Shown here one piece after another: positions 8,008-22,019 of a stretch of 64,000 nucleotides of DNA. Position 1 is the first letter of the stretch, and each line of letters begins with the position of its first letter. The notes beneath the pieces were generated by a model that did not search any database, was not told the origin of the DNA, and saw nothing but the letters and a program-made list of their open reading frames with translations. The DNA lies in the NCBI GenBank assembly GCA_038211355.1, contig JBBQVR010000001.1, forward strand, positions 491-64,490. Direction: 5' to 3'. The stretch comes from Rhodobacterales bacterium. Its GTDB lineage: Bacteria; Pseudomonadota; Alphaproteobacteria; Rhodobacterales; Rhodobacteraceae. The translations under genes were made by a program, and so were the position numbers.

Positions 8008-10074
8008 TCAGTTCCGAGCGACTGTCCGCAATTCCAGTTGCAGGATGATGGGGCTGGGGCCGGTGTCATCGCCTTCCTCCGTCAGCCCAATTGCGCCGCG
8101 CGTGGTCTGGCCGAAACCAGCCTCGGCCAGCGCGTCGCCAAAGGCGGAACCGCCCAGGCTGCGGGTGGTGTCCAGCGCGTCTTGCGCAAGGTAGCCAAGA
8201 TCCTCAACCGGGCTTTGCGGTTTGGCGGGCGTCACGACGACCAGCATCCGTTCCTGCCCAAGGACCGTATCGGTGATCTTGAAGAGGCCCTTTTTCAATT
8301 CATCCCCCGGCTGCAGGCGGCCCGAAAACCAGTGGCTGATCGCATAATCCGCCGCGATGTAAAGGACGTTCACGTCAACCGGCCAGTCCGTGTTGTTGCG
8401 GGCAAGGACATGCACCTCGTCCTCGGGCAGCAGGGTGGGGACCGGTGCGAAGGGCAAGGCGCGTAGCGTGCGGTCTTCGGGCGTGCGGGTCTGCAGCGCA
8501 ACTGACACATCCAGCCCTTCGGACCCCACGGCAGCGCCGAGTTTCAGCAGGTTCTGCGCGCGGGCGATGGTGGTCAAAGTGTCGGCCAGGGTCGTGGCCA
8601 GCGTCGCGCCATCCTTGTCGGTGGCAAGGACGGACGGGGTGGTGCCAAGGTCTTCGGCCAGACCGGTTGCGGGCAAGACCCAGATTGCATCGGGGCGCGG
8701 GCTGTCGGGCAGGACGGCAAGGCGAAGGTCGGCCTCAACGCTTGCGTCAACGAAGATCAGCCGGGGACCTGCGGCTTCGGTCAGCGCCACCAGTGCCGTC
8801 AGCAGCTTGTCGGCGGGCGCGCTTCCCGGGGCGGGCAGGGCCACCGTCAGGGTGAAATCCAGCGCCTCATCCAGCTTGCGCAGGGTCATGCCCTTGGGCA
8901 GGTCGGCGGGAAGGGTCTTGCCGTCGCGCACCACAGGCCGGCCGGTGGCGGCGAAGGTGCCGACCGTGGTCAGTTCCACATATCCCAGCGCGGCATCGGT
9001 CGGATCGGCGGCACTTGCCAAGACGGCCATCACCGCGCCGGTCGCAAGGCCATGCAGCGACCCCGCGGCGATGGTCAGGCCCGCGTCAGTCACGTCAGCC
9101 TGCCACTGGGCGACGCGGGTGCCGGGGCTGGCCCCGAACACCACCTGATCAAGATCGCCCTCAAACAGCGGGGTAGAGCGGGCGAGGTTCCTGACCGAAT
9201 AGCGGCGCAGCACCTCTTGCCCGATCTGGCCATAGGTCGCACCGGGGTATTCGGCCAGCACCTCCATCAGGGTGAAGGTAAAGACGCCCTGCGGCTTGCG
9301 GCCCGGTTTGCCCTTGGGCAGGTTCTTTTCGGGGGTCACCTCGTTCGTCTGCGCGGCGAAGAAGGCGACAAAGCTGCCCTCACCCGCGCCGGCGTCAAAC
9401 GGTGCTTCGACCCCCTCGCGCGGATCACCCAGCGACCGGGTGGTCACAGCCTCCATCGCCATGGGATCAATCCCCAAAGCCTCGGGCGGGATCTGGCGGG
9501 TGCGCACATCTTCATCTGCCCCATCAAGGCTCCGGGTGGCGGTGCCGGAATGGCAGCTGTCGAACACCGCCCAGACATTGGCCCCCTTGGCGCGCAGGCC
9601 GTCGATCAGGGTGCCGATCTCATCATCGACCAGCGCGTTTTCCACCGTGCCCACGCCGTCTGACCAGGTGCCGATATCGACCGGCAGGAACAGCTCATCC
9701 AAGCCATCCAGTTCGGACGTGGGGTCAAGGGCCGGGGCCTGCGTGCCGTGGCCGGAAAAGTGGAGATAGACGAAATCACCGGGCTGGACCCGCGCAGTCA
9801 GATCGGCAAAGGCCGTGCGGATCGCGGCAAGCGTGGGGGCCTGATACCCCGCAACGCCATCGGTCAGGATGGTCAGATTTTCCGCGGCAAAGGGCACCGG
9901 CGCGCTGGTGGTCAGGTAGCCCGCGACCAGCTGCACATCATTGGCGGGGCCTTTCAGCCACCAGCGCTCCTCCAGGTTCTGGTATTGGTTCGCGCCGATC
10001 AGGATGGCGTGGTTTTCCGCCAACGCCGGAAAGGCGGCCGTCATCACGGCGAGGGTGAGGGCGCTGCGCCACAT
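8008..10074 (-). CDS. Secreted caspase-family (peptidase C14, metacaspase/orthocaspase type) protein with C-terminal DUF4384-like domain
   Basis: Signal peptide (FPALA|E); LKGPANDV, HFSGHG (His), FDSCHSG (Cys); C-terminal RNNTDWPVDVNVLYIAAD...GQERMLVVVT resembles DUF4384. Confidence 0.88.
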   Translation of the reverse strand: MWRSALTLAVMTAAFPALAENHAILIGANQYQNLEERWWLKGPANDVQLVAGYLTTSAPVPFAAENLTILTDGVAGYQAPTLAAIRTAFADLTARVQPGDFVYLHFSGHGTQAPALDPTSELDGLDELFLPVDIGTWSDGVGTVENALVDDEIGTLIDGLRAKGANVWAVFDSCHSGTATRSLDGADEDVRTRQIPPEALGIDPMAMEAVTTRSLGDPREGVEAPFDAGAGEGSFVAFFAAQTNEVTPEKNLPKGKPGRKPQGVFTFTLMEVLAEYPGATYGQIGQEVLRRYSVRNLARSTPLFEGDLDQVVFGASPGTRVAQWQADVTDAGLTIAAGSLHGLATGAVMAVLASAADPTDAALGYVELTTVGTFAATGRPVVRDGKTLPADLPKGMTLRKLDEALDFTLTVALPAPGSAPADKLLTALVALTEAAGPRLIFVDASVEADLRLAVLPDSPRPDAIWVLPATGLAEDLGTTPSVLATDKDGATLATTLADTLTTIARAQNLLKLGAAVGSEGLDVSVALQTRTPEDRTLRALPFAPVPTLLPEDEVHVLARNNTDWPVDVNVLYIAADYAISHWFSGRLQPGDELKKGLFKITDTVLGQERMLVVVTPAKPQSPVEDLGYLAQDALDTTRSLGGSAFGDALAEAGFGQTTRGAIGLTEEGDDTGPSPIILQLELRTVARN

Positions 10075-10697
10075 CAGTTTGTCATCAACGCATAGGTGGC
10101 CGCAGCGGGCCCCTTGTTGTCAACTTTCAGCGTGAAGGTCCCGCCAGCCGCCGGGGTCCAGCCGCAATAGGCGATGTGGCTGATGTCGGTATCGGTGCAG
10201 ACCAGACGGCCCTTGTCGTCAAGCACGGTCAGGTTGACGTTGGTGGCGGCCTTCGCCTCGACGTAAACCTCGGCGTATTCACCGCCGCGAAACTCAATCG
10301 GGGGGTAGGTGTCGTTGCCGCCGTTCGCCAGCGCCCCGATGTTGTAGACCGGGCCAGAGGCGACGCCCTTGGTCGTTTCAACTGCGATATCCTCGATCAG
10401 ACCCAGCAGGGTGGCATCGTCTGCGGCAAGCGCCTCGGCGGTGGCAAGCATCTCTTGCCAAGTGAGGGGGGCGCCCTCGGTGGGCTGGCCACCCAAGGGC
10501 AGACGGTCGCCCGCAACCGGGGCCAGCGATTTGCGCAGCCGGGCGGCCGACAGGATCAAAACGGGGTCAGCCGCCGCGACGCCGGTGTCATAAAGCCGCG
10601 CGGAAAGGGCGGCCACTTGCACGGGCGAGGCCGTCTCAGCCCCGGCGCTGGAGGCAAGGGCCAGGGCAAAGCTGGCGGCAAGCAGGGATCGGCGCAT
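10074..10697 (-). CDS. Secreted hypothetical protein, paralog A (helical N-domain plus PPC-like beta-sandwich)
   Basis: Signal peptide (SAGA|E); stop overlaps caspase start (TGATG); aligns by eye with 19121-19942 and 20066-20755. Confidence 0.8.
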   Translation of the reverse strand: MRRSLLAASFALALASSAGAETASPVQVAALSARLYDTGVAAADPVLILSAARLRKSLAPVAGDRLPLGGQPTEGAPLTWQEMLATAEALAADDATLLGLIEDIAVETTKGVASGPVYNIGALANGGNDTYPPIEFRGGEYAEVYVEAKAATNVNLTVLDDKGRLVCTDTDISHIAYCGWTPAAGGTFTLKVDNKGPAAATYALMTN

Positions 10698-10773
10698 CGG
10701 AAAACTCACACAAGGGATTGTCTTGCCGGTGACCATGCGTCCGGGTGCTTCGGCTGTAAATGCTGGAATTTTT

Positions 10774-10792
10774 CATGACGGGCTTTGTCATG
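10774..10792. promoter_or_regulatory. Putative regulator site 1, CATGAC-N7-GTCATG (minus strand TGACAAA-GCCC-GTCA)
   Basis: Inverted repeat in the divergent intergenic region; same motif at 15758 and 20044. Confidence 0.6.
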
Positions 10793-10851
10793 TGCCAAGG
10801 CTTTGGGCCGCTGTTAGCAAGGCGGCAAGCAGGCAGGAACAAAGGTGCACG

Positions 10852-12195
10852 ATGCAGACGGGACAAAAGGAAAGGCGCGGGCAACGGCGCATCTGGCCAC
10901 AGCGATATCTGGGTGAGGTGCTGGCCGCGCTGGTCGTGATCGTGCTGGTGGCGCTGGTCGGGCCGGCCAATGCCACCCCGCTTGATGATGCGATGGACCG
11001 CGTCTTCACGGTGCGCAGTGCCGACGCCGAGGACAGGTTTCTGGGGTCGGCCTTCCTGTGGGGTGCGGGGGACGTTGCCGTGACCAACGCCCATGTGGTC
11101 GGCACCGCAGGCGAGGTGCGTCTGGTGGGCCGCCACGGGGCAGAGGAAACCGCGCTGGTCATCGCGCGCGATGCGCTGCGCGATGTGGCAGTGATCGCGG
11201 TCAGCGCAAGGTTTGCCGGTGGCCGGGCCGGGCTGGACCTTGTGACCACGTCCCCCGGTCTGGGCGATGAGGTCTTTGCCCTTGGCGCACCGCTTGGGGT
11301 GGAATTCACCCTGACCGAGGGCCGGATTTCCGCCACCGCGCGGCAGGTGGACATCACCGTGCCGTTGCTGATGCTGCAGCATGATGCGGCGGTCAATCCG
11401 GGGTCTTCGGGCGGGCCTCTGGTCGATGCTGACGGGCGGCTTTTGGGGATGAACAGCCAGATCGCCGATGGCAGCCGGATGTTTGTCGGCATCGCCTATG
11501 CCATCGCGGCGCCTGACCTTGCGGCCTTCGTCACCGGCCTGATCGAGGAAACCCTGCCGCCGTTCCCGTCGCTTGGCGTGACCGCGCGACCGGTGGACCG
11601 GCAGGTGGCGGCAGCGCTGGGTGTTGCGGTGGCGGGATTGCTGGTCGACGGGGTGACCGCGGGCGGGCTGGCCGAGGCGGCGGGTCTGCGCGGTGGCGAT
11701 GTGATCGTGGCGGTGGACGGGACTGCGCTGGTGCAACCGGGCGATCTGGCCTTTGCGGTGGAACGGGCGGCTGTGGCGGGTGAAACGCTGATCACCGTGT
11801 TGCGGGGCGGGGCGCAGCTGAACCTGACCGTGTCGCTTTTGGCCGAGGAGGCTGGCCTGCGCCTGCGGCAGGTGTCGGGGGGCATGCCGGAAACGGTGCA
11901 GGCCTACCGGCTGGCAGCCCTTGGCGTGGTGCTGGACGCTGCGGGCCGGGTGACGGCGGTCACCGAAAGCTCGCCCGCCCTGTTCGCCGGGCTGGCGCTG
12001 GGTGACCGCATCCTGACGGTGAACGGCGCAGAGGTGGACCTGTCGGCCTATGAGGTGACCGAGCCGGTGTTGCTGCTGGTGCAGGCCCCGGGCGGTTTGA
12101 CGCGGCACATCCATCTGGACCCCTGGCGCGCGCAAGGCGGGGTGCGGCCTCTGGGCGGGGCGAATGTCCTTGACCCGGACGTGGTGGTGTTCTGA
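10852..12195 (+). CDS. HtrA/DegP-like serine protease with PDZ domain(s)
   Basis: VTNAHVV (His), RDVAVI (Asp), DAAVNPGSSGGPL (Ser); PDZ-like GLRGGDVIVAVDG; N-terminal hydrophobic segment. Start uncertain (10852 or GTG 10918). Confidence 0.88.
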   Translation: MQTGQKERRGQRRIWPQRYLGEVLAALVVIVLVALVGPANATPLDDAMDRVFTVRSADAEDRFLGSAFLWGAGDVAVTNAHVVGTAGEVRLVGRHGAEETALVIARDALRDVAVIAVSARFAGGRAGLDLVTTSPGLGDEVFALGAPLGVEFTLTEGRISATARQVDITVPLLMLQHDAAVNPGSSGGPLVDADGRLLGMNSQIADGSRMFVGIAYAIAAPDLAAFVTGLIEETLPPFPSLGVTARPVDRQVAAALGVAVAGLLVDGVTAGGLAEAAGLRGGDVIVAVDGTALVQPGDLAFAVERAAVAGETLITVLRGGAQLNLTVSLLAEEAGLRLRQVSGGMPETVQAYRLAALGVVLDAAGRVTAVTESSPALFAGLALGDRILTVNGAEVDLSAYEVTEPVLLLVQAPGGLTRHIHLDPWRAQGGVRPLGGANVLDPDVVVF

Positions 12196-12221
12196 ATGAG
12201 GGGCCAAGGGAAGGTGGGGGC

Positions 12222-12926
12222 ATGAACGACCGGATCCTGATCGTCGAAGACGATAGTGAGACTGCCGCCGCCGTGCGTGCGGTGGTCGAGGGGTTGGGCT
12301 GCCACGTCGACCATCACGACACGCTTGAGGCCGGCATCGCCGCTGCCATCGCCACGCCCTACAAGGTCATCGTGCTGGACCGGATGCTGCCGGGCGGCGA
12401 CGGGGTCGAGGCGATGGCACGGTTGCGGGCCGGTGGGTCAACCGCGCTGATCCTGATCCTGTCGGCGCTGGGTCGCGCCGCCAACCGGGTGGAGGGGCTG
12501 GAAAAGGGTGCGGATGACTATCTGCCGAAACCCTTTGAACCCGATGAGTTGCGCGCCCGCGTGCGCGCCCTGTTGCGACGCGGCACGATGCAGGTGCTGG
12601 ACAATGACCTTCTGGCCTTCGGTGATCTGGAAATCCGGCTGAAGGCGCGGACGGTGCATGTCAAACGCGCCCATGTGGCGGTCAGCCCGAAAGAGTTTGA
12701 GCTGTTGACCTATTTTGCCAGCAACGCCGGGCAGATCGTCACCCGGATGCAGCTTTTGGAAAACGTCTGGAACCTGCACTTCGACCCCGGCACCAATGTG
12801 GTTGATGTCCATGTCGGCCGCCTGCGCCGCAAGCTGGAAGAAGCAGGCTCCACCGCGATCCAGACCGCGCGGGGGGAGGGGTATGTCTTTGCCCCGCTTG
12901 CCCCGACTTTGGGGCCCGCCGGGTGA
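12222..12926 (+). CDS. OmpR-family response regulator (CusR/CopR-like C-terminus)
   Basis: ILIVEDD, VIVLD (phosphoacceptor), DDYLPKPF; wHTH LLENVWNLHFDPGTNVVDVHVGRLRRKL. Confidence 0.93.
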   Translation: MNDRILIVEDDSETAAAVRAVVEGLGCHVDHHDTLEAGIAAAIATPYKVIVLDRMLPGGDGVEAMARLRAGGSTALILILSALGRAANRVEGLEKGADDYLPKPFEPDELRARVRALLRRGTMQVLDNDLLAFGDLEIRLKARTVHVKRAHVAVSPKEFELLTYFASNAGQIVTRMQLLENVWNLHFDPGTNVVDVHVGRLRRKLEEAGSTAIQTARGEGYVFAPLAPTLGPAG

Positions 12927-14284
12927 CACAGGCCCGCCCCCTGGCGGCGCGGGCCACGTTGCGGCTGGCGGCGGTGATGGCCCTTGCGGTAACGGTTCTG
13001 TCGCTTCTGGCGATGGGGTTGCAATATCGGCTGGTCGAGGTGCGGCTGATGCAAGCGCAGCGCGCGCTTTTGTCAGCCGACCTGGACGGGTTCGCAGCCC
13101 TTTATGACCAGCGCCGGATCATCGCCCTGCGGCAGGCCATCGACTACCGTGCGGCGGCGGCGACGGGCGAAGAGATGCTGCTGTTGCTGGACCGTAGCGG
13201 CGCCAAGCTGGCTGGCACGCGCGCCGGCTGGCCGGCCGGCCTTACCGCCGAGGGGGATGCCTTCACCGTCGAACCCGCAACGGTGTTTGTGGAAGGCGGC
13301 ACACGCTGGCTGGTTGTGGCGCGCAAACTGCCGGGGGGGTTTCCGCTGCTTGTCGCACGATCGCTTGACCCGGTTGATGACACGCTGGCGGCCCTGCGGC
13401 GCGGGATGCTGGGACTGCTCGCCGCGCTGCTGGTGGCGGGGGGTGGGGTCGGCTGGCTGGCGGCGCGGTCGGTCATGGGCCGGATCGGGCGGGTGAATGA
13501 TCTGGCCGACCGCGTGGCCGAAGGGGCGCTGGACGCGCGGCTGCCGGGGGCGCGGTCTGACGATGAGTTCGGCCTGTTGGAAACCCACGTCCACGCCATG
13601 CTGGACCGTATTCAGAACCTGAACCGCGCCACGCACCGCCTGTCCGACACCATCGCGCATGAATTGCGCACACCGCTGAACCGGATGCTGCAAAAGCTGG
13701 GCCGGATCGAGGATCACGAAGAGGTCACGGCCGAGTTGAAGGCCGAGATGCGGCAAGCGATCCGCATGTTTGACAGCCTTCTGGACATCAGCCGCGCCGA
13801 GGCTGACGCAGGCACCGGCGGCGGTCTGGTGCCGGTTGACCTGTCTGCCGTGGCATCGGAAGTGTGGGAGTTGTATGAGCCCTTGGCCGAGGACAAGGGG
13901 CTTGCCTGCACCTCTGACATTGCCCCCGGCCTGCAGATCCTGGGTGACCGCAACCTGATTGCGCAGCTTTTGGCCAACCTTCTGGACAACGCCATCAAGT
14001 ATTGCGCGGCGGGTGACCTGCTTACCCTGACGCTGGTCGTCTTTGGCGACCGGCACCTGATGCGGGTATCGGACACCGGCCCCGGCCTGCCCGCCGAGAT
14101 GCGCGGCGAGGCGTTTGAGCGTTTCGTCCGGGCCGAGCGTGACCGGTCCACCCCCGGCCATGGCCTTGGTCTTGCCCTGGTGCGGGCCATTGCCGCCCGG
14201 CATGGCGCGCGGCTGGTGCTGCCTGACGGTGCTGGCGGATTCACGCTTGAAATCCACTGGCCCAGGCTGCAGCAATCGGACTGA
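12923..14284 (+). CDS. Sensor histidine kinase (2 TM, periplasmic domain, HAMP)
   Basis: H-box IAHELRTPL, N-box LLDNAIKY, G1 VSDTGPG, G2 GHGLGL; GTGA overlap with the regulator. Confidence 0.93.
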   Translation: MTQARPLAARATLRLAAVMALAVTVLSLLAMGLQYRLVEVRLMQAQRALLSADLDGFAALYDQRRIIALRQAIDYRAAAATGEEMLLLLDRSGAKLAGTRAGWPAGLTAEGDAFTVEPATVFVEGGTRWLVVARKLPGGFPLLVARSLDPVDDTLAALRRGMLGLLAALLVAGGGVGWLAARSVMGRIGRVNDLADRVAEGALDARLPGARSDDEFGLLETHVHAMLDRIQNLNRATHRLSDTIAHELRTPLNRMLQKLGRIEDHEEVTAELKAEMRQAIRMFDSLLDISRAEADAGTGGGLVPVDLSAVASEVWELYEPLAEDKGLACTSDIAPGLQILGDRNLIAQLLANLLDNAIKYCAAGDLLTLTLVVFGDRHLMRVSDTGPGLPAEMRGEAFERFVRAERDRSTPGHGLGLALVRAIAARHGARLVLPDGAGGFTLEIHWPRLQQSD

Positions 14285-14305
14285 CCCTCTCATTCCGGAC
14301 CCTGC

Positions 14306-15748
14306 ATGAAACGCGCTGTCCTTCCCCTGCTGTTGCTTCTGGGCTGCGCGCCGTGGAATTCGCCGCTGAACCAGCCGTTGCAGGGGGAAAACGCCAGTCT
14401 GGTTGAACCGGCGGTCGTGGGCGATGGAGAGCTTTACATCGGTCTGGCCTTTTCAGGCGGCGGGTTCCGGGCCACGTCCTTCGCCTACGGTATGCTTGAG
14501 GAATTGCGCGCGGCGGGGGTGGAAACCGGCACGCCGAACGGCCTGCTTGATCAGGTGCGGCTGGTGTCGGGTGTCTCTGGCGGGTCGGTGATGGCGGCGC
14601 AGTTTGGCTTGCGTGGGCCAGAGGGGCTGACCGGGTTCCGGGAGAAGTTCCTTCTGACCGACGGTGAGGCCTATATGGTCACCTCAGGCCTGAACCCCTT
14701 GACCATCGCCAAGGGCGTGGCGGGCGGGGTGAACGGGCGCGATACCTTTGGCCGCTATCTGGATGATACGCTGTTCAACGGCGCCACCTTCGGCGATCTG
14801 CGCAAATCCTCACGCATCAAGACCTGGATCAACGCCACCGACATGGCGAACAACACGCCGTTTCTGTTCAGCCCCGAGACGTTTGATGCGCTGTGTTCCG
14901 ACCTGTCGCAGGTGCGCCTGTCCGAGGCGGTGGCTGCCAGCGCCGCCTTCCCGCTTGTCTTCACCCCCATCGTGCTGAAGGCGCATCAGGGCAAGTGCAA
15001 CTACGTTGAGCCCGACTGGCTGACAGCCGCGCGCTATAACCCCGAGGCGACGGCCGCAATGCGCGCCCATGCCCGCGCGCTGGAAAGCTATACCAACCCA
15101 GATGAGGTGAAGTTCGTCAAACTGCTGGATGGCGGGATCACCGACAACTTCGGCACGACAGGTCTTGCGGTAGAGCGCGCCCGCGCGCAGGTGCCCTATG
15201 CGCCGCTGACGGCGGAAGAGGCGGTCAAGCTGAAACGGATGCTGTTCCTTGTCGCCAACGCCGGGGTTGAGGAAGACTATGACTGGACGCAGCAAGTGGC
15301 CGGTCCCGGTGGGGTCAACCTTGCGATGTCGATTGCCACCAGCGCCATGTCGGCGGCGTCACGGTCTGGCTATGACTCCATGCGGGGTGAACTGCGCGTG
15401 TGGGAGGCAGAGCTGATCGACTGGCGCTGCGCCTTGCCGATGGTTGAAGTGCGCCGGTTGCGCGGATCGACCGAAGGGTGGGACTGCAAGGATGTAAAGC
15501 TGTTCGTGGGTGAGGCCAGCTTTGCCAGCCTGCCCCCGGCGCTGCGCGACAAGCTGAACAATGTGCCGACCCGTCTGAAACTGCCGCCTGCTGAGGTGGA
15601 CATGGTGATTGAAGCCGGGCGATTGGCCACCCGCATGACGCCGGAGTTCAACGGTTTCCTCGCCTCGCTGGCTGGAAATAATGTGGACGGGCGGATCGTG
15701 GACGGCATCGCCGCAGGCGGGCGGCGGGTGATGCCCTTGGGGAATTGA
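14306..15748 (+). CDS. Patatin-like phospholipase, predicted lipoprotein
   Basis: Lipobox LLG|C; SGGGFRA oxyanion loop, GVSGG nucleophile, LLDGG Asp motif. Confidence 0.88.
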   Translation: MKRAVLPLLLLLGCAPWNSPLNQPLQGENASLVEPAVVGDGELYIGLAFSGGGFRATSFAYGMLEELRAAGVETGTPNGLLDQVRLVSGVSGGSVMAAQFGLRGPEGLTGFREKFLLTDGEAYMVTSGLNPLTIAKGVAGGVNGRDTFGRYLDDTLFNGATFGDLRKSSRIKTWINATDMANNTPFLFSPETFDALCSDLSQVRLSEAVAASAAFPLVFTPIVLKAHQGKCNYVEPDWLTAARYNPEATAAMRAHARALESYTNPDEVKFVKLLDGGITDNFGTTGLAVERARAQVPYAPLTAEEAVKLKRMLFLVANAGVEEDYDWTQQVAGPGGVNLAMSIATSAMSAASRSGYDSMRGELRVWEAELIDWRCALPMVEVRRLRGSTEGWDCKDVKLFVGEASFASLPPALRDKLNNVPTRLKLPPAEVDMVIEAGRLATRMTPEFNGFLASLAGNNVDGRIVDGIAAGGRRVMPLGN

Positions 15749-15757
15749 CGGGTCAGG

Positions 15758-15772
15758 TGACAAATCCGGTTA
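15758..15772. promoter_or_regulatory. Putative regulator site 3, TGACAAA-TCCG-GTTA
   Basis: About 53 bp upstream of the caspase-2 start; one mismatch to the palindrome of sites 1 and 2. Confidence 0.5.
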
Positions 15773-15824
15773 GCTGCAGGAAGCCGCTTGTTCCATGCGG
15801 GCCCTTGGCTATCTTGGGCAGGTC

Positions 15825-17801
15825 ATGCGCAAGCCTCTGTCTGCCCTTGCGGGCCTTCTGGCCCTGATGATCGCCCCGCCCGCGCTGGCCGAGGTGCGGG
15901 CAGTGCTGGTCGGAGTCAGCGATTATCTGGTGCTGGATGCCGATCTGAAAGGCCCCGCAAACGACGTGCGCCTGATGGCCGAGACGCTTGCCTTGCGCGG
16001 CGTTGATCCCGGCGCGATGACCGTGCTGACGGCTGATCCTGCAGGCCTGCCACCCGGCGTGAAAACGGCAGCCCCGCTGCGGGCCGCGATCCTTGCGGCG
16101 ATGGCGGCGGTGGCCGATGCGTCAGCCCCCGGCGATACGGTGGTTTTCTACTTCTCCGGCCACGGCGCGCAGGCCCCGGACATGAGCGGCGACGAAGGCG
16201 GTGGCTATGATGAGATATTGCTGCCCGCCGATGCTGCCGGGTGGAGAGGCGCCATCGGCGCGGTGGAAAACGCGATTCTGGATGATGAGCTGCAGGTCTG
16301 GGCGCAAGGGATGCTGTCGCGCGGCGTGCAGGTGGTGGGGCTGATCGACGCCTGCCATTCAGCCACGGGCTTTCGCGCGGCTGGGGGCGCGGGCGTGGCG
16401 CGGGTGATTGATGCGGCGGCGCTGGGCATCCCTGCGGATGTGGTGCCGGTCACGGGCAACCCCGTGCCGCCGCTGACGGGAAGTTTCGTGTTCCTCTACT
16501 CCTCTCAATCCGATCAGCGGTCGTTTGAATACCCGATGGCGGATGGCACCTGGCAGGGAGAATTCACCTTGCGGCTGGCGCAAACCTTGCAGACCGCGCC
16601 GCAGGCCAGCTGGGCGCAGGTGCTTGCCGCCACGACCGAAGGCATGGTGCAAGGCCCCGCGCGGCAGATGCCGGATGGCGAGGGGACATTGTTGCAAGCC
16701 CCGGTTTTCGGGACCGGGCAAGCCGCGCTGCGGGTGCCGGTGGCGGGGGGCAAACTGGCGGCGGGCCTGTTTCAGGGGCTGGCGGCGGGGGCAGAGGTCG
16801 CGGTTTATGCCGATGCTGCGGGGGGGGAGGCGCTGGCTGTCCTTACCCTTGGGACAGTAAGCGCGCGTGAGGCGGTTCTGATCGGCGCACTCCCCGACGC
16901 GGCGCTTTGGGCCGAGGTGGTCAGCGCCCCGCCCCCCGCGCCGCTGGTGCTGGCGGCCCCGGTGCGGGCCGATAGGGCAGACGGGTTTGAGTATGCGGCC
17001 TGGGAAGCGGCCTTGCGTGATGGAGCCGCCACCGGCCCTTCGCCCGACCTTGTGCCGATCCTGACCGGTGGCGCGGTGGCGCTGGCCGGGGCGGACGGGG
17101 TGCTGGACCCTGAGGGGCCGGGATCTACCCCGCGGATCAGGCTGCGCGAGGGCGAGGCAGAGGCGGATGCCGTGGCGCGGGTGCTGGAGGCTGCCGCCCA
17201 TGGCCTTGGCCTGCGCGCGGTCCTTGCGGGGGCGGCGGGGCGGTCGCTGACCGGCAAGGCTGCGCTCTCCATGGTGGTTGAACGCCGGGCGGCCGGGCCG
17301 GACTGTGGCGCGGTGGGCCGGGGCGTGTCGCATGACCCGGCCCAGGGGGTTGCCCCCTGTGACCAGCTTTGGCTGACGCTGACCAACACCGGCGGCAAGG
17401 CGCAGGATGTCAGCGTGCTGTACTTCGCGGCGGATTTCAGCGTGGCCCCGATCTGGCCCGCGCAGAACCTTGCCAACCGCCTGGCACCGGGGGAAAGCAC
17501 CCGCGTCGGCCTGATGATCGAGGCGGACAGCACGGCAGGACTGGAGGAAATCTGGGTTCTGGCCGTTCCGGCAGACCCCGACACCCCCCGCGTGGACCTG
17601 ACGCGCCTTGCCACGCCGGAAACCGCGCGCGACCTTGGGGGCGCAGACCCCATGACGCAGTGGCTGGAAAGCCGCCTGCCCAAGGACGGTGGCACGACGC
17701 GCGGCTTTTCCCTGAAACCCGCCGTGTTGACGATGATCCGTCAGATGGTGCGCCTGACCCCCCCAGAGTTCTTCCCCGCCGATCCCTTGATGGAGAATTG
17801 A
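15825..17801 (+). CDS. Second secreted caspase-family (C14, metacaspase type) protein with C-terminal DUF4384-like domain
   Basis: Signal peptide (PPALA|E); LKGPANDV, YFSGHG, IDACHS; C-terminal TNTGGKAQDVSVLYFAAD...GLEEIWVLAV parallels the first caspase. Confidence 0.88.
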   Translation: MRKPLSALAGLLALMIAPPALAEVRAVLVGVSDYLVLDADLKGPANDVRLMAETLALRGVDPGAMTVLTADPAGLPPGVKTAAPLRAAILAAMAAVADASAPGDTVVFYFSGHGAQAPDMSGDEGGGYDEILLPADAAGWRGAIGAVENAILDDELQVWAQGMLSRGVQVVGLIDACHSATGFRAAGGAGVARVIDAAALGIPADVVPVTGNPVPPLTGSFVFLYSSQSDQRSFEYPMADGTWQGEFTLRLAQTLQTAPQASWAQVLAATTEGMVQGPARQMPDGEGTLLQAPVFGTGQAALRVPVAGGKLAAGLFQGLAAGAEVAVYADAAGGEALAVLTLGTVSAREAVLIGALPDAALWAEVVSAPPPAPLVLAAPVRADRADGFEYAAWEAALRDGAATGPSPDLVPILTGGAVALAGADGVLDPEGPGSTPRIRLREGEAEADAVARVLEAAAHGLGLRAVLAGAAGRSLTGKAALSMVVERRAAGPDCGAVGRGVSHDPAQGVAPCDQLWLTLTNTGGKAQDVSVLYFAADFSVAPIWPAQNLANRLAPGESTRVGLMIEADSTAGLEEIWVLAVPADPDTPRVDLTRLATPETARDLGGADPMTQWLESRLPKDGGTTRGFSLKPAVLTMIRQMVRLTPPEFFPADPLMEN

Positions 17802-17802
17802 G

Positions 17803-18861
17803 ATGACGCTTTCCCATTTGCCCAAGGCCGCGTTTCTTGCGGTGCTGCTCGCCTCAACCGCGCTGGCGGAAGAGGGGCCGGGCTTTGCTGTCAAGGCCGG
17901 CGGGGTGACGGTCTCACCCTTCGCCTACGCAAAGTCCGGGGCCAAGGCGGCGCGGGCGGCCACGGCCGAGGCGGCAGGCGCAAAGGTCATCGGCGGCGAG
18001 GTTGCGGCCGAGGGGGCCTGGCCCTGGCAGGTGGCACTGCTGGTCGGCGGGGCAGAGGTCAGCTCTGACAGCCAGTTCTGTGGCGGGTCGCTGGTCATGG
18101 ACCGCTGGGTGCTTACGGCGGCGCATTGCATCCATATGGACCAGGGGGATGGCAGCTTTGCCGATCTGGCACCGCAGGACCTGTCGATCCTGGTTGGAAC
18201 GAACGCGCTGGTGCCGGGCAGGGGGGATCTGATCCCGGTCGCGGCGATCTTTCGCCACCCGTCCTACGATGGCGCCAAGTTCGACTTTGACCTAGCGCTG
18301 GTGCAACTGGCGCGCGCGCCGAATGTGCCCTACGCGCTGATCGAGGTGCCGGACGCCGAGTTTGGCGGTCTTTTGAACCAGCAGGGGGTGACGACGATCG
18401 TCACTGGCTGGGGTCTGCAGGAAGGGGCGACCCCGTCAACCGAATTGCGGCAGGCCGAGATTCAGGTGCTGGACCGTGACCTCTGCAACGCCTCGATGCT
18501 GGAGGCGCGGGCGGAAGATGCGGCCGGCGGGTTTTCCTATGCGGCGCAGACGCTGGGCCTTGGCGAGGACGATGCCTTTGCGCTGTGGGATCAGATGGTG
18601 GCGCGCGCGCCGATGCCGGTCAGCGAGAACATGATCTGTTCCGGCACATTCGAGGGCGGCAAGACCAGCTGCAACGGCGACAGCGGCGGGCCTTTGGTGG
18701 TTCCCCTGGACGACGGCAGCTACATTCAGGCCGGGATCGTCAGCTGGGGGCTGAGCGCAAGTTCGGGTCAGGGCTGCGAGGAGACGGCGCTGTTTTCCGC
18801 CTATACCGACATTTCGAAGTTCGTGCCCTGGCTGAACGAGGTGATCGCGGCGAACCCCTGA
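17803..18861 (+). CDS. Secreted chymotrypsin-family (S1A) serine protease zymogen
   Basis: Signal peptide (TALA|E), propeptide ending AK|VIGG, WPWQVAL, CGGSL, TAAHC, DLALVQL, GDSGGP. Confidence 0.92.
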   Translation: MTLSHLPKAAFLAVLLASTALAEEGPGFAVKAGGVTVSPFAYAKSGAKAARAATAEAAGAKVIGGEVAAEGAWPWQVALLVGGAEVSSDSQFCGGSLVMDRWVLTAAHCIHMDQGDGSFADLAPQDLSILVGTNALVPGRGDLIPVAAIFRHPSYDGAKFDFDLALVQLARAPNVPYALIEVPDAEFGGLLNQQGVTTIVTGWGLQEGATPSTELRQAEIQVLDRDLCNASMLEARAEDAAGGFSYAAQTLGLGEDDAFALWDQMVARAPMPVSENMICSGTFEGGKTSCNGDSGGPLVVPLDDGSYIQAGIVSWGLSASSGQGCEETALFSAYTDISKFVPWLNEVIAANP

Positions 18862-19120: not shown

Positions 19121-19942
19121 TTAGTTCGTCATCAGGTGGTAGCTGTTGCGCACGCTGCCCATGTTCTGGACAGTGACGTAGAAATAGCCATCCCAAGCGG
19201 GGGTAAAGTCGCAGTAAAGCGAGTCTGACCAGCTGACATCATAGCAAAAGACGTTGCCGTTTTCATCGGTGATCGCCACGTCAAGATCGGTGTCGCCGTC
19301 GCCCACCACCGCAATTTCGCCGTAGGAATTGCCGTAGAACGGGATTTCCCAGACATCGGTCTGGCCCGCGGGCAGGCGGGACAGCCACTGCACCGCGCCG
19401 CCGATCCGCCCGCGGGAGCCTTCGGCCATCGCATCCTCGATCAGGCCAAGGATCGCCTCATCTCCGGCGGCAAGCTCGGTCGCCTTGGCGAACATCGCTT
19501 CTGCGGTCACGGGGGCGTCGGCGGCGCCTTCCTCTTCTGATGTGGCGGTAAAAAAGCTGGCCTTGGCGGCAGGGCGCATCCCGTCAGCCATCATCGGGGC
19601 CGGAGCGGCAGGGGCTGCGGAAGGGGCAACCTTTTTGCGCAAGGATTCCTGATCCCCCTCGGCGAAGGCGATGGTGGCAGGGTCGAGTGCCGCAGCCTCA
19701 GCCGTGGTGACGCTGACCGAAGCCGCGAGTTTGGCCGCGGCCAGCACGGTCAGCGCATCGCCTTGCGCAAGGCCCACGTCATAGAGGTCCTGGGCCAGGC
19801 CCATGGTCGTGGCACCCCCGGCAGCGGTGGCGGTGGCCGCGGGGTCGATGTTGGTGCCCGATTTGTCTTGTGCAAAGGCGGGAATGGCCAGCGCGACCAG
19901 TGTGGTCGTGGCCAGCGCGCGCGAAAGGGATTTCAGCGTCAT
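19121..19942 (-). CDS. Secreted hypothetical protein, paralog B (helical N-domain plus PPC-like beta-sandwich)
   Basis: Signal peptide (PAFA|Q); GDGDTDLDVAITDENGNVFC...YCDFTP...YHLMTN. Confidence 0.8.
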   Translation of the reverse strand: MTLKSLSRALATTTLVALAIPAFAQDKSGTNIDPAATATAAGGATTMGLAQDLYDVGLAQGDALTVLAAAKLAASVSVTTAEAAALDPATIAFAEGDQESLRKKVAPSAAPAAPAPMMADGMRPAAKASFFTATSEEEGAADAPVTAEAMFAKATELAAGDEAILGLIEDAMAEGSRGRIGGAVQWLSRLPAGQTDVWEIPFYGNSYGEIAVVGDGDTDLDVAITDENGNVFCYDVSWSDSLYCDFTPAWDGYFYVTVQNMGSVRNSYHLMTN

Positions 19943-20065: not shown

Positions 20066-20755
20066 CTAGTTGCCGATCAGGCGGTAGCTGTTTTGCAGGC
20101 TGCCGGGGTTGTGGATGGTGGCGGTGAAAAAGTCGTTGCGGGCCGGGGTCAGCCGGCACAGGGCCGGATCAACCGACGGCGGCGTGGCGCAGACGATGTT
20201 GCCCGCCGCATCTTGCAGGGTCAGGGACAAGGGGGTGTCGCCATCGCCGATCACGCCGATCTCGGCTGTGACCTCACCAAAGAGGGGGAGGCGCCATGTA
20301 TCGGTCTGGCCGGGGCCAAGGTCGGCCTTCGCCTCGGTCGCGGTTTCGGTGGGTCCGCGCGGCAACTGTGCGTCAAGGTCATAGGCCAGGTCCTGCAAGG
20401 CGGGATCGTCGCCGACCAGGTTGCGGACGATGGCCAAGGCTGCCTCGCTGGCCGGGTCGGGGGCGGCGGTGCGGCCGGTGGGGGCGTCAGGGACCGCATC
20501 ACCGCTGGTCGTGCGCGCCCAGGCCGGGGCGGGGCGCAGGGTGACGCCGCGCGCCAGGCGAATGGCCACCAGCATGGGCAGCACCTCGCCCGAAGTCAGG
20601 GCCTGTTGCCAGGTGCGCTGCGCCAGGATCAGGCGTTGGGCCGTGCCGGGCGTGCCACCGGGGGTGGCGGACAGGTTTGCCGCCTCAGCCAGCGCGGCGG
20701 GGGCGGCAAGAAGCGTCACAAGAAGGGCGGCACCAATGGCTGGGGAGCGGATCAT
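20066..20755 (-). CDS. Secreted hypothetical protein, paralog C (helical N-domain plus PPC-like beta-sandwich)
   Basis: Signal peptide from ATG 20755 (AALA|E); GDGDTPLSLTLQDAAGNIVC...LCRLTP...YRLIGN. Confidence 0.78.
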   Translation of the reverse strand: MIRSPAIGAALLVTLLAAPAALAEAANLSATPGGTPGTAQRLILAQRTWQQALTSGEVLPMLVAIRLARGVTLRPAPAWARTTSGDAVPDAPTGRTAAPDPASEAALAIVRNLVGDDPALQDLAYDLDAQLPRGPTETATEAKADLGPGQTDTWRLPLFGEVTAEIGVIGDGDTPLSLTLQDAAGNIVCATPPSVDPALCRLTPARNDFFTATIHNPGSLQNSYRLIGN

Positions 20756-20870
20756 TTTCGGGCTTTCCGGGGCTGCGGCGAACTGTGGCAAAGCCAGGTG
20801 CAAGGGACAAGTGCGGAAACCTTTCCGTACCCGGCATTTCCGGCTAGCAGAAGGGAAACGGAGGTGATGC

Positions 20871-22019
20871 ATGCGCGACATTCTGGACCGGCTTTTGGCC
20901 TTCGACACGGTCAGCTTCAAGCCAAACATGGGGCTGATGCTTTATGTGAAGGACTTGCTGGAGGGGGCAGGCATTGCCGTGACCCTGATCCCGGATGCCG
21001 GGGGCGGGAAGGCGAACCTCTTTGCCACCGTGGGGCCACAGGGGCAGGGTGGGGTCATGCTCTCAGGCCATACCGATGTGGTGCCGGTAGAGGGGCAGAC
21101 CTGGACCAAGCCCCCCTTCGCGATGACCGAGGCTGACGGCCGCATCTACGGGCGGGGGGCGGCAGACATGAAGGGCTTCGTTGCCTGTGCGGTGGCGGCG
21201 ATGCTTGACGCCGCAAACCGGCCGTTGCGCGTGCCGCTGCATCTGGCGCTGTCTTATGACGAAGAGATTGGCTGCATGGGGGTGCGCAGTCTGATCGACA
21301 TGCTGGATGCGGCCCCGGTGCGGCCAAGGATGTGCATCGTGGGGGAACCCACGGGGATGCAGGTCGCGACCGGCCACAAGGGCAAGGTCGCGCTGCGGGC
21401 AACCTGCGTGGGGCGTGAGGGGCATTCGGCGCTGGCCCCGCTGGCCTTGAATGCGCTGCATCTGGCGGGGGATTTTCTGGTGGCGGTCAGGGGTTTGCAG
21501 GCTGAGGTGGCGGCGACGGGCCTGCGCGATGGTGACTATGACGTGCCCTATACCACGCTGCATGTCGGCAAGATGTCGGGCGGGGTGCAGGTCAATATCG
21601 TGCCCAACCACGCGAGCCTGGACTTTGAGATCCGGTCGCTGGCGGATGAGGATGTGGCGGGCCTGATCACCCGGCTGGAGGCGGCGGCGGAAGGGATCGT
21701 GGCACCACTTCGGGCAGAGTTTCCAGAGGCCGCGATCAGGGTGGAGCGCTTGTGGAATTACCCCGGCCTTGGCACGCCATCGGATGCGGGGGTGGTCAAC
21801 TTCGTCAAGGGGCTGACGGGGGCGAACGGGACGATCAAGGTGGCTTTCGGGACGGAAGGGGGCCTCTTTGACCAGCGGCTTGGCATTCCGACGGTGATCT
21901 GCGGGCCGGGGTCAATGGCGCAGGGGCACAAGCCGGATGAGTTCGTGACCGTGGAGCAGCTGGAGCGGTGCGAGGCGATGCTGGGCGCATTGATCCAGCG
22001 GCTGGAGGCGGGGTTTTAG
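20871..22019 (+). CDS. argE: Acetylornithine deacetylase (M20)
   Basis: LSGHTDVVP, YGRGAADMKG, SYDEEIGC, IVGEPT, AHKPDEF-like terminal motif. Confidence 0.85.
   Translation: MRDILDRLLAFDTVSFKPNMGLMLYVKDLLEGAGIAVTLIPDAGGGKANLFATVGPQGQGGVMLSGHTDVVPVEGQTWTKPPFAMTEADGRIYGRGAADMKGFVACAVAAMLDAANRPLRVPLHLALSYDEEIGCMGVRSLIDMLDAAPVRPRMCIVGEPTGMQVATGHKGKVALRATCVGREGHSALAPLALNALHLAGDFLVAVRGLQAEVAATGLRDGDYDVPYTTLHVGKMSGGVQVNIVPNHASLDFEIRSLADEDVAGLITRLEAAAEGIVAPLRAEFPEAAIRVERLWNYPGLGTPSDAGVVNFVKGLTGANGTIKVAFGTEGGLFDQRLGIPTVICGPGSMAQGHKPDEFVTVEQLERCEAMLGALIQRLEAGF

Follow-up and report, generated by a model that had tools for sequence, protein, structure and literature searches.

Recurrent conserved arginine motifs as candidate processing or self-blocking sites in two exported metacaspase-like proteases of a Rhodobacterales bacterium

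Introduction

C14 enzymes other than the caspases cleave after Arg or Lys (review, PMC5756287). Among the type II (C14B) metacaspases of plants, AtMC9 carries a linker residue, Arg183, that lies in the catalytic pocket 36 residues past Cys147 and is self-cleaved, and in AtMC4 the linker residue Lys225 occupies the active site and self-cleavage activates the enzyme (PMC12122906). The type I metacaspases undergo no p20-p10 processing (PMC5756287), and the S1 pocket of one of them, TbMCA2, is built from Asp95, Ser156, and Asp211 (PMC4357240). A prokaryotic C14 homolog, MaOC1 from Microcystis aeruginosa, cuts after basic residues, processes itself on expression, and requires removal of its p20 domain from the chain for activity (PMC5756287). 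It is the only characterised orthocaspase and, rather than Thr at P2, favours clustered basic residues (PMC7935541).

Two caspase homologs, caspase-1 and caspase-2, are encoded in a Rhodobacterales bacterium (Tabrizicola-type) together with several secreted proteins. A preliminary description of the locus had proposed that a short Arg motif marks cleavage sites across the cluster. All coordinates below and in Table 1 are positions in the window, that is, the whole 64,000-nt stretch of DNA that was analysed.

Table 1. Features of the locus, with positions in the 64,000-nt window
Feature	Residues or size	Position	Strand	Location or basis
Caspase-1 (P0001)	688 aa	8008..10074	-	PF00656, Yca1 p20 alignment, AF2, Foldseek
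Caspase-1 site 1	T-A-T-R181/S	9529..9543	-	seven residues past catalytic Cys174
Caspase-1 site 2	V-T-T-R213/S	9433..9447	-	p20-p10 linker, Cys174 +39
Caspase-1 site 3	D-T-T-R638/S (DTTR/SLGG)	8158..8172	-	first motif, inserted C-terminal loop
Caspase-1 site 4	Q-T-T-R659/G	8095..8109	-	second motif, same loop as site 3
Paralog A (P0003)	220 aa, secreted	10074..10736	-	AF2 pLDDT 90.2; Foldseek 3afg, 3jqw, 5sv5
Paralog A junction	E-T-T-K123/G124	10365..10379	-	linker between its two domains
Caspase-2 (P0002)	668 aa	15795..17801	+	PF00656, BLASTP against caspase-1
Caspase-2 site 1	T-G-F-R194/A	16365..16379	+	seven residues past Cys187
Caspase-2 site 3	E-T-A-R612/DLGG	17619..17642	+	column of R638
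Caspase-2 site 4	G-T-T-R636/G	17691..17705	+	column of R659
S1 protease (17803-18861), zymogen junction	G-A-K61/V-I(GG)	17977..17991	+	K 49 and R 8 of 57 sequences
Paralog B junction	G-S-R/G-R	19406..19420	-	ORF 19121-19942; BLASTP against P0003, E 4e-23
Paralog C junction	L-P-R/G-P	20351..20365	-	ORF 20066-20929; BLASTP against P0003, E 3e-8

Identity and Domain Organization of the Caspases

Caspase-1 consists of a Sec signal peptide, a metacaspase-like C14 domain, a middle domain, and a C-terminal beta-sandwich. It matches PF00656 with an E of 6e-17 (62.6 bits against the Pfam cut-off of 21.4), and caspase-2 does so with an E of 4.7e-19 (69.4 bits, same cut-off). Caspase-2 also carries a signal peptide and is a full-length paralog of caspase-1 (33% identity, BLASTP E 4e-50 across the entire length). 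The catalytic dyad is formed by H109 (in SGHG) and C174 (in DSCHSG) in caspase-1 and by H123 and C187 in caspase-2. The family is large, with more than 1,000 representatives at 50% identity and E below 1e-30, and the His-Cys dyad was kept in 129 of 130 sampled representatives sharing less than 50% mutual identity. Site conservation was followed in these 130 sequences and in 77 orthologs of caspase-1 and 57 aligned orthologs of caspase-2 (59 at site 4).

The C14 domain of caspase-1 aligns to the Yca1 p20. TbMCA2 and Yca1 (4af8, 4f6o) were the best PDB matches by sequence (E 2e-15), and AtMC9, AtMC4, and GSU0716 headed the Foldseek matches of the AF2 model (pLDDT 83.6). AtMC9 and AtMC4 (8a53, 9n3d-f, 6w8r-t) gave the best fold matches of the protease domain (Foldseek E ~1e-15) and have in common with caspase-1 the dyad, an acidic S1 pocket, and the p20-linker-p10 layout; the self-cleaved linker residue of AtMC9 (Arg183) stands at Cys+36 and its candidate counterpart in caspase-1 (R213) at Cys+39. 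Unlike these enzymes, the caspases described here are bacterial and Sec-exported, and their ~690 aa include two additional domains; the Cys+7 Asp that serves as a Ca2+ ligand is replaced by an invariant Arg; and further copies of the motif stand at three sites, including two in one loop of the C-terminal beta-sandwich, and others are found in partner proteins.

The S1-pocket residues are also common to caspase-1 and the type I enzymes: through Yca1, D46, S107, and D172 align to D95, S156, and D211 of TbMCA2, and D46 and D172 are invariant among 120–130 relatives. From this conserved acidic pocket, cutting after Arg or Lys is to be expected. Both proteins are best explained as exported metacaspase-like (C14B-type) cysteine proteases, predicted to cut after Arg or Lys. 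They differ from MaOC1, which is cytoplasmic and consists of p20 only, in being exported and multi-domain and in having motifs with Thr or Ser at P2 and a small P1'. They also differ from the animal caspases, which are cytosolic and dimeric and have Asp at P1 and a basic S1 pocket.

The C-terminal domain had been called DUF4384-like. Two of the motifs do lie in a loop of this beta-sandwich, but Pfam searches for DUF4384 (PF14326) were negative both in the C-terminal halves of the two caspases (E cut-off 10) and in 27 diverse relatives (E cut-off 0.1), and the model has a generic Ig/MSP-like fold.

Recurrence and Conservation of the Arginine Motif

Translation of both ORFs returned all six peptides originally listed for the caspases, and ETTK/G of paralog A was likewise found (Table 1). 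The motif occupies four places, namely Cys+7 (site 1), the p20-p10 linker (site 2), and two positions in a loop that interrupts the C-terminal beta-sandwich (sites 3 and 4). All four sites of caspase-1 have T/S at P2, R at P1, a small P1', and an aliphatic P2' in the 77 orthologs. The proposed form T-T/A-R-G/S was borne out as a recurrent, conserved Arg motif, but its T-T/A doublet lies outside the conserved core because P3 varies; the core reads [A/V/T]-[T/S]-Arg, then [G/S/A], then aliphatic [V/L/I/A]. Codons differ among the copies, so the repetition is at the level of protein and not of DNA.

Conservation extends deep into the family and is far above that of the surroundings. At site 1, Arg was present in 129/130 representatives, with P2 Thr in 92 and P1' G/A/S in 120. 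Site 3 had R/K in 118/130 (P2 T/S 81, P1' G/S/A 99) and site 4 had R/K in 124/130 (P2 T/S 97, P1' G/S/A 122), the context FG-x-TTRGA being invariant among close orthologs. An acidic P1' is frequent at site 3. Site 2 was examined in the 77 caspase-1 orthologs, where Arg was found in 99%, T/S at P2 in 92%, and S/A/G at P1' in 99%. The caspase-1 lineage shares this linker motif with most of the wider family, in which [ST][RK][GSA] occurred in 78/130 linkers, whereas shuffled sequences predict 24.

The two C-terminal sites of caspase-2 are homologous to those of caspase-1, as had been proposed (R612 and R636 share alignment columns with R638 and R659), and R194 shares the Cys+7 column with R181. 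At site 4 of caspase-2, Arg was kept in 59/59 orthologs, with Gly at P1' in 49 and then an invariant Phe. The code is not uniform, since caspase-2 deviates at three sites: it has Phe instead of Thr at P2 of site 1 (R 57/57), no Arg or Lys in the linker stretch matching site 2, and a variable P1' at site 3 (R 56/57, P2 Thr 39).

Could chance or composition account for the recurrence? At 65% G+C, Thr, Ala, Arg, and Gly are frequent residues, the motif was defined post hoc, and [ST]R[GSA] is expected about 1.5 times in a protein of this size. The broad rule of small-small-basic-small, [GAST][GAST][RK][GAST], was indeed not enriched (4 vs. 2.4 expected) and is no more frequent here than in the proteome. 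The enrichment over the proteome (crude calls, 2,511 ORFs, 838,842 aa) is seen with the narrow forms: TTR[GS] occurred 3 times in caspase-1 against 0.024 expected (Poisson P 2e-6, or ~0.005 corrected for 2,511 proteins) and [TA]TR[GS] 4 times against 0.06. Proteome-wide there were 29 occurrences of TTR[GS], of which caspase-2 has one. Apart from caspase-1, three T[TA]R[GS] matches were reached only by an Arg/Ser-rich, wrong-frame ORF, an artefact of gene calling. The family mean of [ST]R[GSA] was 3.9 per protein (1.6 after shuffling) and that of TRG was 1.36 (0.24 after shuffling). In addition, R181, R638, and R659 are the only ones of 13 conserved R/K columns to combine T/S at -1 with G/S/A at +1, and also the only ones located in loops of low pLDDT. 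Each site is thus independently confirmed by ortholog and deep-family conservation, which largely refutes chance and leaves it a very improbable explanation.

Loops, the Calcium Site, and Inactive Relatives

The AF2 model of caspase-1 has four segments below pLDDT 50 (176–186, 217–220, 636–641, and 657–670). Sites 1, 3, and 4 fall inside the first, third, and fourth of these, and the second starts four residues past R213, the block 211–220 having a mean pLDDT of 48. Residues 175–234 form a mostly unstructured 60-residue segment after the Cys that carries conserved [TS]R[GSA] motifs. The motif sites are thus predicted to lie in or beside flexible loops. Strong conservation combined with low pLDDT would equally suit loops that order upon binding a ligand or partner.

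This last point bears on a rival account, which we consider rather unlikely, in which the motifs are structural or regulatory and never cut. The C-terminal TRG loops would bind an anionic ligand or a partner such as the PPC-domain paralogs, or act as a permanent plug, and R181 would substitute for a Ca2+ ion, paired with the acidic residues that are retained as a cluster (D117, D126, and E127). Type I enzymes bind Ca2+ through Asp220 (TbMCA2), one of four Asp (D173, D189, D190, and D220) forming the site. The set is incomplete in caspase-1: D189 and D190 have retained equivalents in D126 and E127, the other acidic ligand positions are retained as well, and the D220 position at Cys+7 is Arg181, an Arg in 129/130 relatives that is essentially invariant even where P2 differs (Phe in caspase-2). 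Because it occupies the position of a metacaspase Ca2+ ligand, the Cys+7 Arg may be structural or regulatory, as a built-in cation or part of substrate binding, rather than a cut site. To our knowledge, no characterised C14 enzyme is cut as close to its catalytic Cys as seven residues. Caspase-3 and caspase-7 are cut for activation about 12 residues past the catalytic Cys, in the loop that follows it, and by analogy a Cys+7 site is conceivable. Sites 3 and 4 are also separated by a conserved amphipathic helix (L-x-x-L-L-x-x-A-G-F-G), which suggests a folded element. Against a purely structural role, AF2 models the remainder of the protein well but places none of the four motifs confidently, the linker motif persists inside an otherwise indel-rich and unconserved stretch, and the same five-residue pattern appears at four unrelated places and in partners, which four separate structural roles would hardly explain.

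Only two catalytically dead relatives were found, P0132 and P0274. Both have lost the Arg of site 1 (R181, to H or Q), a loss confined to these two, and that of site 2 (R213), and P0132 has also lost R659 of site 4, changed to SAQ. They retain 84–85% of 176 near-invariant positions, of which active sequences lose 1.5 on average. The two form one lineage, effectively a single event, and at least one lies outside the cluster, so that general relaxation of constraint is a confounder. Their losses are compatible with any catalysis-coupled feature, and they would be equally expected if Arg181 had a substrate-binding or cation role. Together, conservation across a large family and decay in dead enzymes suggest that the motifs are probably the caspases' own cut or self-blocking sites.

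Candidate Substrates Encoded in the Cluster

The gene order of the cluster is kept across ~70 Paracoccaceae loci. The stop of paralog A overlaps the start of caspase-1 (TGATG), and its product has a helical N-domain and a PPC/collagen-binding-like beta-sandwich. The linker 120–129 between the two is the lowest-confidence internal block of the AF2 model, and its junction has K in 75 and R in 4 of 79 sequences followed by G in 79/79. G124 is invariant across the three paralogs A, B, and C (72 sequences), and R-G occurs at the junction in 24/24 B/C-type sequences; the true start of paralog C is probably further inside its ORF. The junction of the S1 protease has K in 49 and R in 8 of 57 sequences, followed by an invariant VIGG. 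The basic junctions of the three secreted paralogs and of the S1 zymogen fit enzymes that cut after Arg or Lys, as predicted for the caspases.

The S1 protease and an HtrA/DegP-like protease are encoded beside the caspases in conserved gene order, and one of these or a housekeeping envelope protease might cut the motifs instead. This appears improbable on several grounds. The S1 protease has Thr at chymotrypsin position 189 in 54/57 sequences, so it is likely not trypsin-like and is unlikely to activate itself after Lys, the cut that it needs. HtrA enzymes generally favour aliphatic P1 residues, which counts against them. The motif Args decay along with the caspases' own dyad, and the acidic S1 pocket of the caspases suits Arg.

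Proposed Mechanism

We consider it probable, if only just, that the motif is a linear signal recognised by the caspases' own active sites, for self- or cross-processing or self-blocking and for cutting of partners. That a bond is cleaved at any motif, and by which enzyme, is an inference. If the zymogen resembles that of type II metacaspases, its acidic S1 pocket would be filled and blocked by a linker motif Arg, that of site 2 or perhaps of site 1. A cut there, made in cis or by another molecule of the enzyme, would then bring about activation. Sites 3 and 4 would be further self- or cross-processing sites or, alternatively, a second pseudosubstrate plug. The caspases would then cut each of the three secreted PPC-domain paralogs in the linker between its domains, at [T/S/P]-[K/R]/G, and would cut the activation site K/VIGG of the S1 protease, whose own pocket is unlikely to accept Lys.

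A bolder extension, which must be regarded as a long shot, is that a double cut at R638 and R659 releases a peptide of about 21 residues (S639–R659) as an envelope signal for the histidine kinase and response regulator encoded mid-cluster. The segment follows the family pattern x-x-[L/I/F]-x-x-[L/M]-[L/F]-x-x-A-G-F-G-x-T-T-R, and the final beta-strand would remain docked to the sandwich. Plant metacaspases release Pep elicitors. Such a peptide, if real, would be a bacterial counterpart of these, atop a caspase-to-S1 zymogen cascade.

Implications

Bacterial caspase homologs are very numerous, and the consensus offers a handle on the activation and targets of the exported ones. Since it recurs in the enzymes and in secreted partners encoded with them, it provides mutable sites at four places and a peptide substrate for testing, along with a candidate substrate set of three PPC-domain paralogs and an S1 zymogen that is probably unable to activate itself. 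Overall, the proposed role of the motif, if confirmed, would show that the way in which type II metacaspases inhibit and cleave themselves also operates in the bacterial envelope, and would define a two-tier protease cascade under two-component control.

Recurrence of the Motif in the Two Caspases

Caspase-1 (P0001, 688 aa, His109/Cys174) and caspase-2 (P0002, 668 aa, His123/Cys187), both with a signal peptide, are full-length paralogs with 33% identity (E 4e-50). The preliminary description had listed short Thr- and Ala-rich basic peptides in both proteins and in paralog A, a secreted protein of 220 aa, and all of these exist where it placed them. In caspase-1 the motif occurs at R181, seven residues past the catalytic Cys (site 1), R213 in the p20-p10 linker (site 2), and R638 and R659 in a loop of the C-terminal sandwich (sites 3 and 4). 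Two independent multiple alignments put the C-terminal Args of the two caspases in shared columns, which bears out the homology claimed for them, and also matched the Arg at Cys+7.

Of the 29 TTR[GS] matches among the 2,511 ORFs of a crude proteome, caspase-1 accounts for three, where 0.024 would be expected (P 2e-6), and caspase-2 for one. The enrichment anticipated in the preliminary description thus holds in caspase-1 for this narrow form but not for the broad small-small-basic-small class, which was not enriched relative to the proteome and was therefore dropped in favor of the conserved core. Three T[TA]R[GS] matches also turned up in just one further ORF, on contig C5, but its reading frame is wrong and stems from crude gene calling. 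A repeat at the DNA level was ruled out: codons differ between motifs, so the repeat resides in the protein. The recurrence is clearly not due to chance. The two C-terminal motifs (caspase-1 residues 635-660) resemble a local duplication, DAL-D-TTRS-LGG and DAL-AEAGFGQ-TTRG-AIG.

Conservation across the Family

With an E-value cut-off of 0.001 the caspase family numbers 11,733 representatives, and with one of 1e-30 it numbers 1,193; most are about 700 aa in length. The sites are kept both in 77 caspase-1 orthologs and in an alignment of 130 full-length family representatives with mutual identity under 50%. Among 13 conserved Arg/Lys columns of the family, T/S before and G/S/A after the basic residue are found only at sites 1, 3, and 4.

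Residues at three sites of caspase-1 among 130 family representatives (P1, residue before the putative cut; P2, residue upstream of it; P1', residue downstream)
Site	Residue	P2	P1	P1'
1	R181	T 92	R 129	G/A/S 120
3	R638	T/S 81	R/K 118	G/S/A 99
4	R659	T/S 97	R/K 124	G/S/A 122

Site 2 appeared unconserved in the first family alignment, a result of misalignment of the variable-length linker that was reversed by an alignment-free count: 78 of the 130 linkers contain [ST][RK][GSA], with RTRG and TTRG as frequent forms, whereas shuffled sequences would give 24. Among the 77 orthologs the Arg of site 2 is 99% conserved amid a stretch otherwise rich in insertions and deletions. Family-wide, [ST]R[GSA] occurs 3.9 times per protein versus 1.6 in shuffles, and TRG 1.36 versus 0.24 times.

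The pattern common to all four sites in the orthologs is A/V/T at P3, T/S at P2, R at P1, G/S/A at P1', and V/L/I/A at P2'. The motif first written as T-T/A-R-G/S is therefore shared, but its core is better given as [T/S]-R-[G/S/A]-aliphatic. A single code across both caspases was only partly upheld: the Arg is common to sites 1, 3, and 4, but the surroundings are not uniform. In caspase-2 orthologs, site 1 has an invariant Arg preceded by Phe, neither Arg nor Lys occurs in the linker beyond R203, site 3 has a variable P1', and site 4 has an invariant Arg followed by Gly-Phe.

Structural Setting of the Sites

Linear motifs, unlike the structural core, typically combine high conservation with low modelling confidence. 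An AlphaFold2 model of caspase-1, based on an alignment of 82 orthologs and paralogs from fetched related loci, has a mean pLDDT of 83.6 and a pTM of 0.67. Only residues 176-186, 217-220, 636-641, and 657-670 fall below pLDDT 50, and the motif lies inside the first, third, and fourth of these segments; the second begins four residues past site 2, and the ten-residue block that includes this site has an average of 48. In the model, the strand that ends at the catalytic Cys is followed by a long linker (residues 175-234), which is for the most part unstructured and leads to the next core strand. The C-terminal sandwich is Ig-like; its last two strands are separated by an excursion of 45 residues, in which sites 3 and 4 bracket a short helix. 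This region had been called DUF4384-like, a label not borne out by Pfam, which gives no DUF4384 there or in 27 diverse relatives. The structures nearest to the protease domain are the type II metacaspases AtMC9 and AtMC4, and the bacterial GSU0716.

Predicted Specificity and the Possible Role of R181

All characterized non-caspase C14 enzymes have Arg or Lys as P1 (PMC5756287). Alignment of caspase-1 to Yca1 and to the list of S1-pocket residues for TbMCA2 (PMC4357240) indicates that its acidic S1 pocket is intact (D46, S107, and D172). In AtMC9, Arg183 of the linker, 36 residues past the Cys, is held in the catalytic pocket, and cleavage after it activates the enzyme (PMC12122906); R213 of caspase-1 lies at Cys+39.

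For site 1, a structural role is a credible alternative. Where classical metacaspases have a Ca2+-ligand Asp (Asp220 in TbMCA2), the caspase family has an invariant Arg (R181 in caspase-1 and R194 in caspase-2), and because of this position R181 may serve in regulation or as a built-in cation instead of as a cut site. The remaining acidic ligand positions, D126 and E127, are retained in caspase-1. Judged by these residues, the family may do without Ca2+ and carry its own cation.

Catalytically Dead Relatives

The catalytic Cys has been lost in only two of about 250 relatives examined, the sister sequences P0132 (H109L, C174A) and P0274 (C174A). Active sequences share 176 positions with a conservation of 95% or more, of which both dead relatives retain 84-85%; an active sequence has on average lost 1.5 of these positions. 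R181 is replaced by H in one and by Q in the other, the linker R213 is gone in both, TTR659 has become SAQ in P0132, and both have Leu for Thr at P2 of site 3. Conservation of the motif Args is thus confined to active enzymes. Their decay, seen in a single lineage of which P0132 lies outside the protease cluster, is suggestive rather than decisive. Given its place outside the cluster, beside unrelated iron and zinc uptake genes, the gene of P0132 (L081:723-2834, Aquicoccus/Carideicomes sp. SCR17) is uninformative on cutting of caspase-1 by caspase-2 in trans. The small dead lineage may represent a pseudo-protease that has taken on another role, or else a copy in decay.

The Gene Cluster and Basic Junctions in Its Products

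The window has 65% G+C and its nearest relatives are Tabrizicola and other Paracoccaceae. A cluster encoding exported proteins occupies 8.0-21 kb.

Genes of the cluster and motif-bearing segments in the window (an arrow marks a putative cut)
Feature	Position	Strand or direction	Remark
Caspase-1	8008-10074	minus	
Caspase-1 C-terminal motifs	8095-8172		
Caspase-1 site 1 (R181)	9529-9543		
Paralog A (P0003)	10074-10736	minus	stop overlaps caspase-1 start
HtrA/DegP-like protease		opposite to caspase-1	
OmpR-type response regulator		opposite to caspase-1	
Histidine kinase		opposite to caspase-1	
Patatin		opposite to caspase-1	
Patatin A-S-R↓S-G	15356-15370		residues 351-355
Caspase-2	15795-17801	opposite to caspase-1	
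Caspase-2 R194	16365-16379		
S1 protease	17803-18861	opposite to caspase-1	start two bases past caspase-2 stop
Paralog B of A	19121-19942	minus	
Paralog C of A	20066-20929	minus	

Of 80 related Paracoccaceae loci, about 70 retain the cluster order, with caspase-1 identity as low as 56%. Two departures from this arrangement occur among loci L030-L032, L035, L037, L038, L045, L051, L057, L067, L069, L073, and L078, and also L044, L046, L059, L066, and L070. A subset of genera (Fuscovulum, Neotabrizicola, and others) lacks the patatin gene in the cluster, and the caspase-2/S1 protease pair has been turned around and relocated at a distance from the kinase in Cypionkella and in some Pseudorhodobacter loci. 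HtrA stays with the two-component system and with paralog A/caspase-1. Two more, much longer C14-domain proteins are encoded elsewhere in the genome (C115:4806-5504 and C163:1194-1940; open frames of 1,148 and 987 aa). They are of a different subtype, and a regular-expression search found no D-x-C-H-S-G-type motif in either.

In the secreted paralogs A, B, and C, a basic-Gly linker connects a helical N-domain to a PPC/collagen-binding-like beta-sandwich that ends in Y-x-L-[M/I]-[T/G]-N. The model of paralog A (pLDDT 90) has this arrangement, with K123↓G124 in the linker. Across 72 sequences of the three paralogs the junction Gly does not vary; the P1 residue before it is Lys in A but Arg in the other two, with Thr or Ser at P2 in most cases. 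Paralog A has no Pfam or NCBIfam family match; the NCBIfam search also returned nothing for the S1 protease or patatin, and the match to 'caspase_w_EACC1' was weak and sub-threshold.

The S1 protease has a conserved activation junction, [A/S]-G-x-[K/R]↓VIGG, and Thr at chymotrypsin position 189. From these residues, self-activation of the zymogen is probably impossible, and an Arg/Lys-specific activator is probably required. Among the non-caspase enzymes of the cluster just one further conserved [ST]R[GSA] occurs, the S-R↓S of the patatin (45 orthologs: S 100%, R 100%, small P1' 91%); the HtrA-like protease has no such conserved motif.

A Candidate Shared Recognition Motif

Full-text searches for orthocaspase, exported bacterial metacaspase, and DUF4384, with incomplete coverage, returned no description of the motif or the family. 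The motif is best read, with moderate confidence, as a candidate shared recognition motif of predicted Arg-specific exported metacaspases, most convincingly so for the linker site (site 2), which upholds part of the interpretation in the preliminary description. At the C-terminus of caspase-1, a double cut at sites 3 and 4 would liberate a peptide of about 21 residues with the conserved amphipathic helix that lies between the two motifs.
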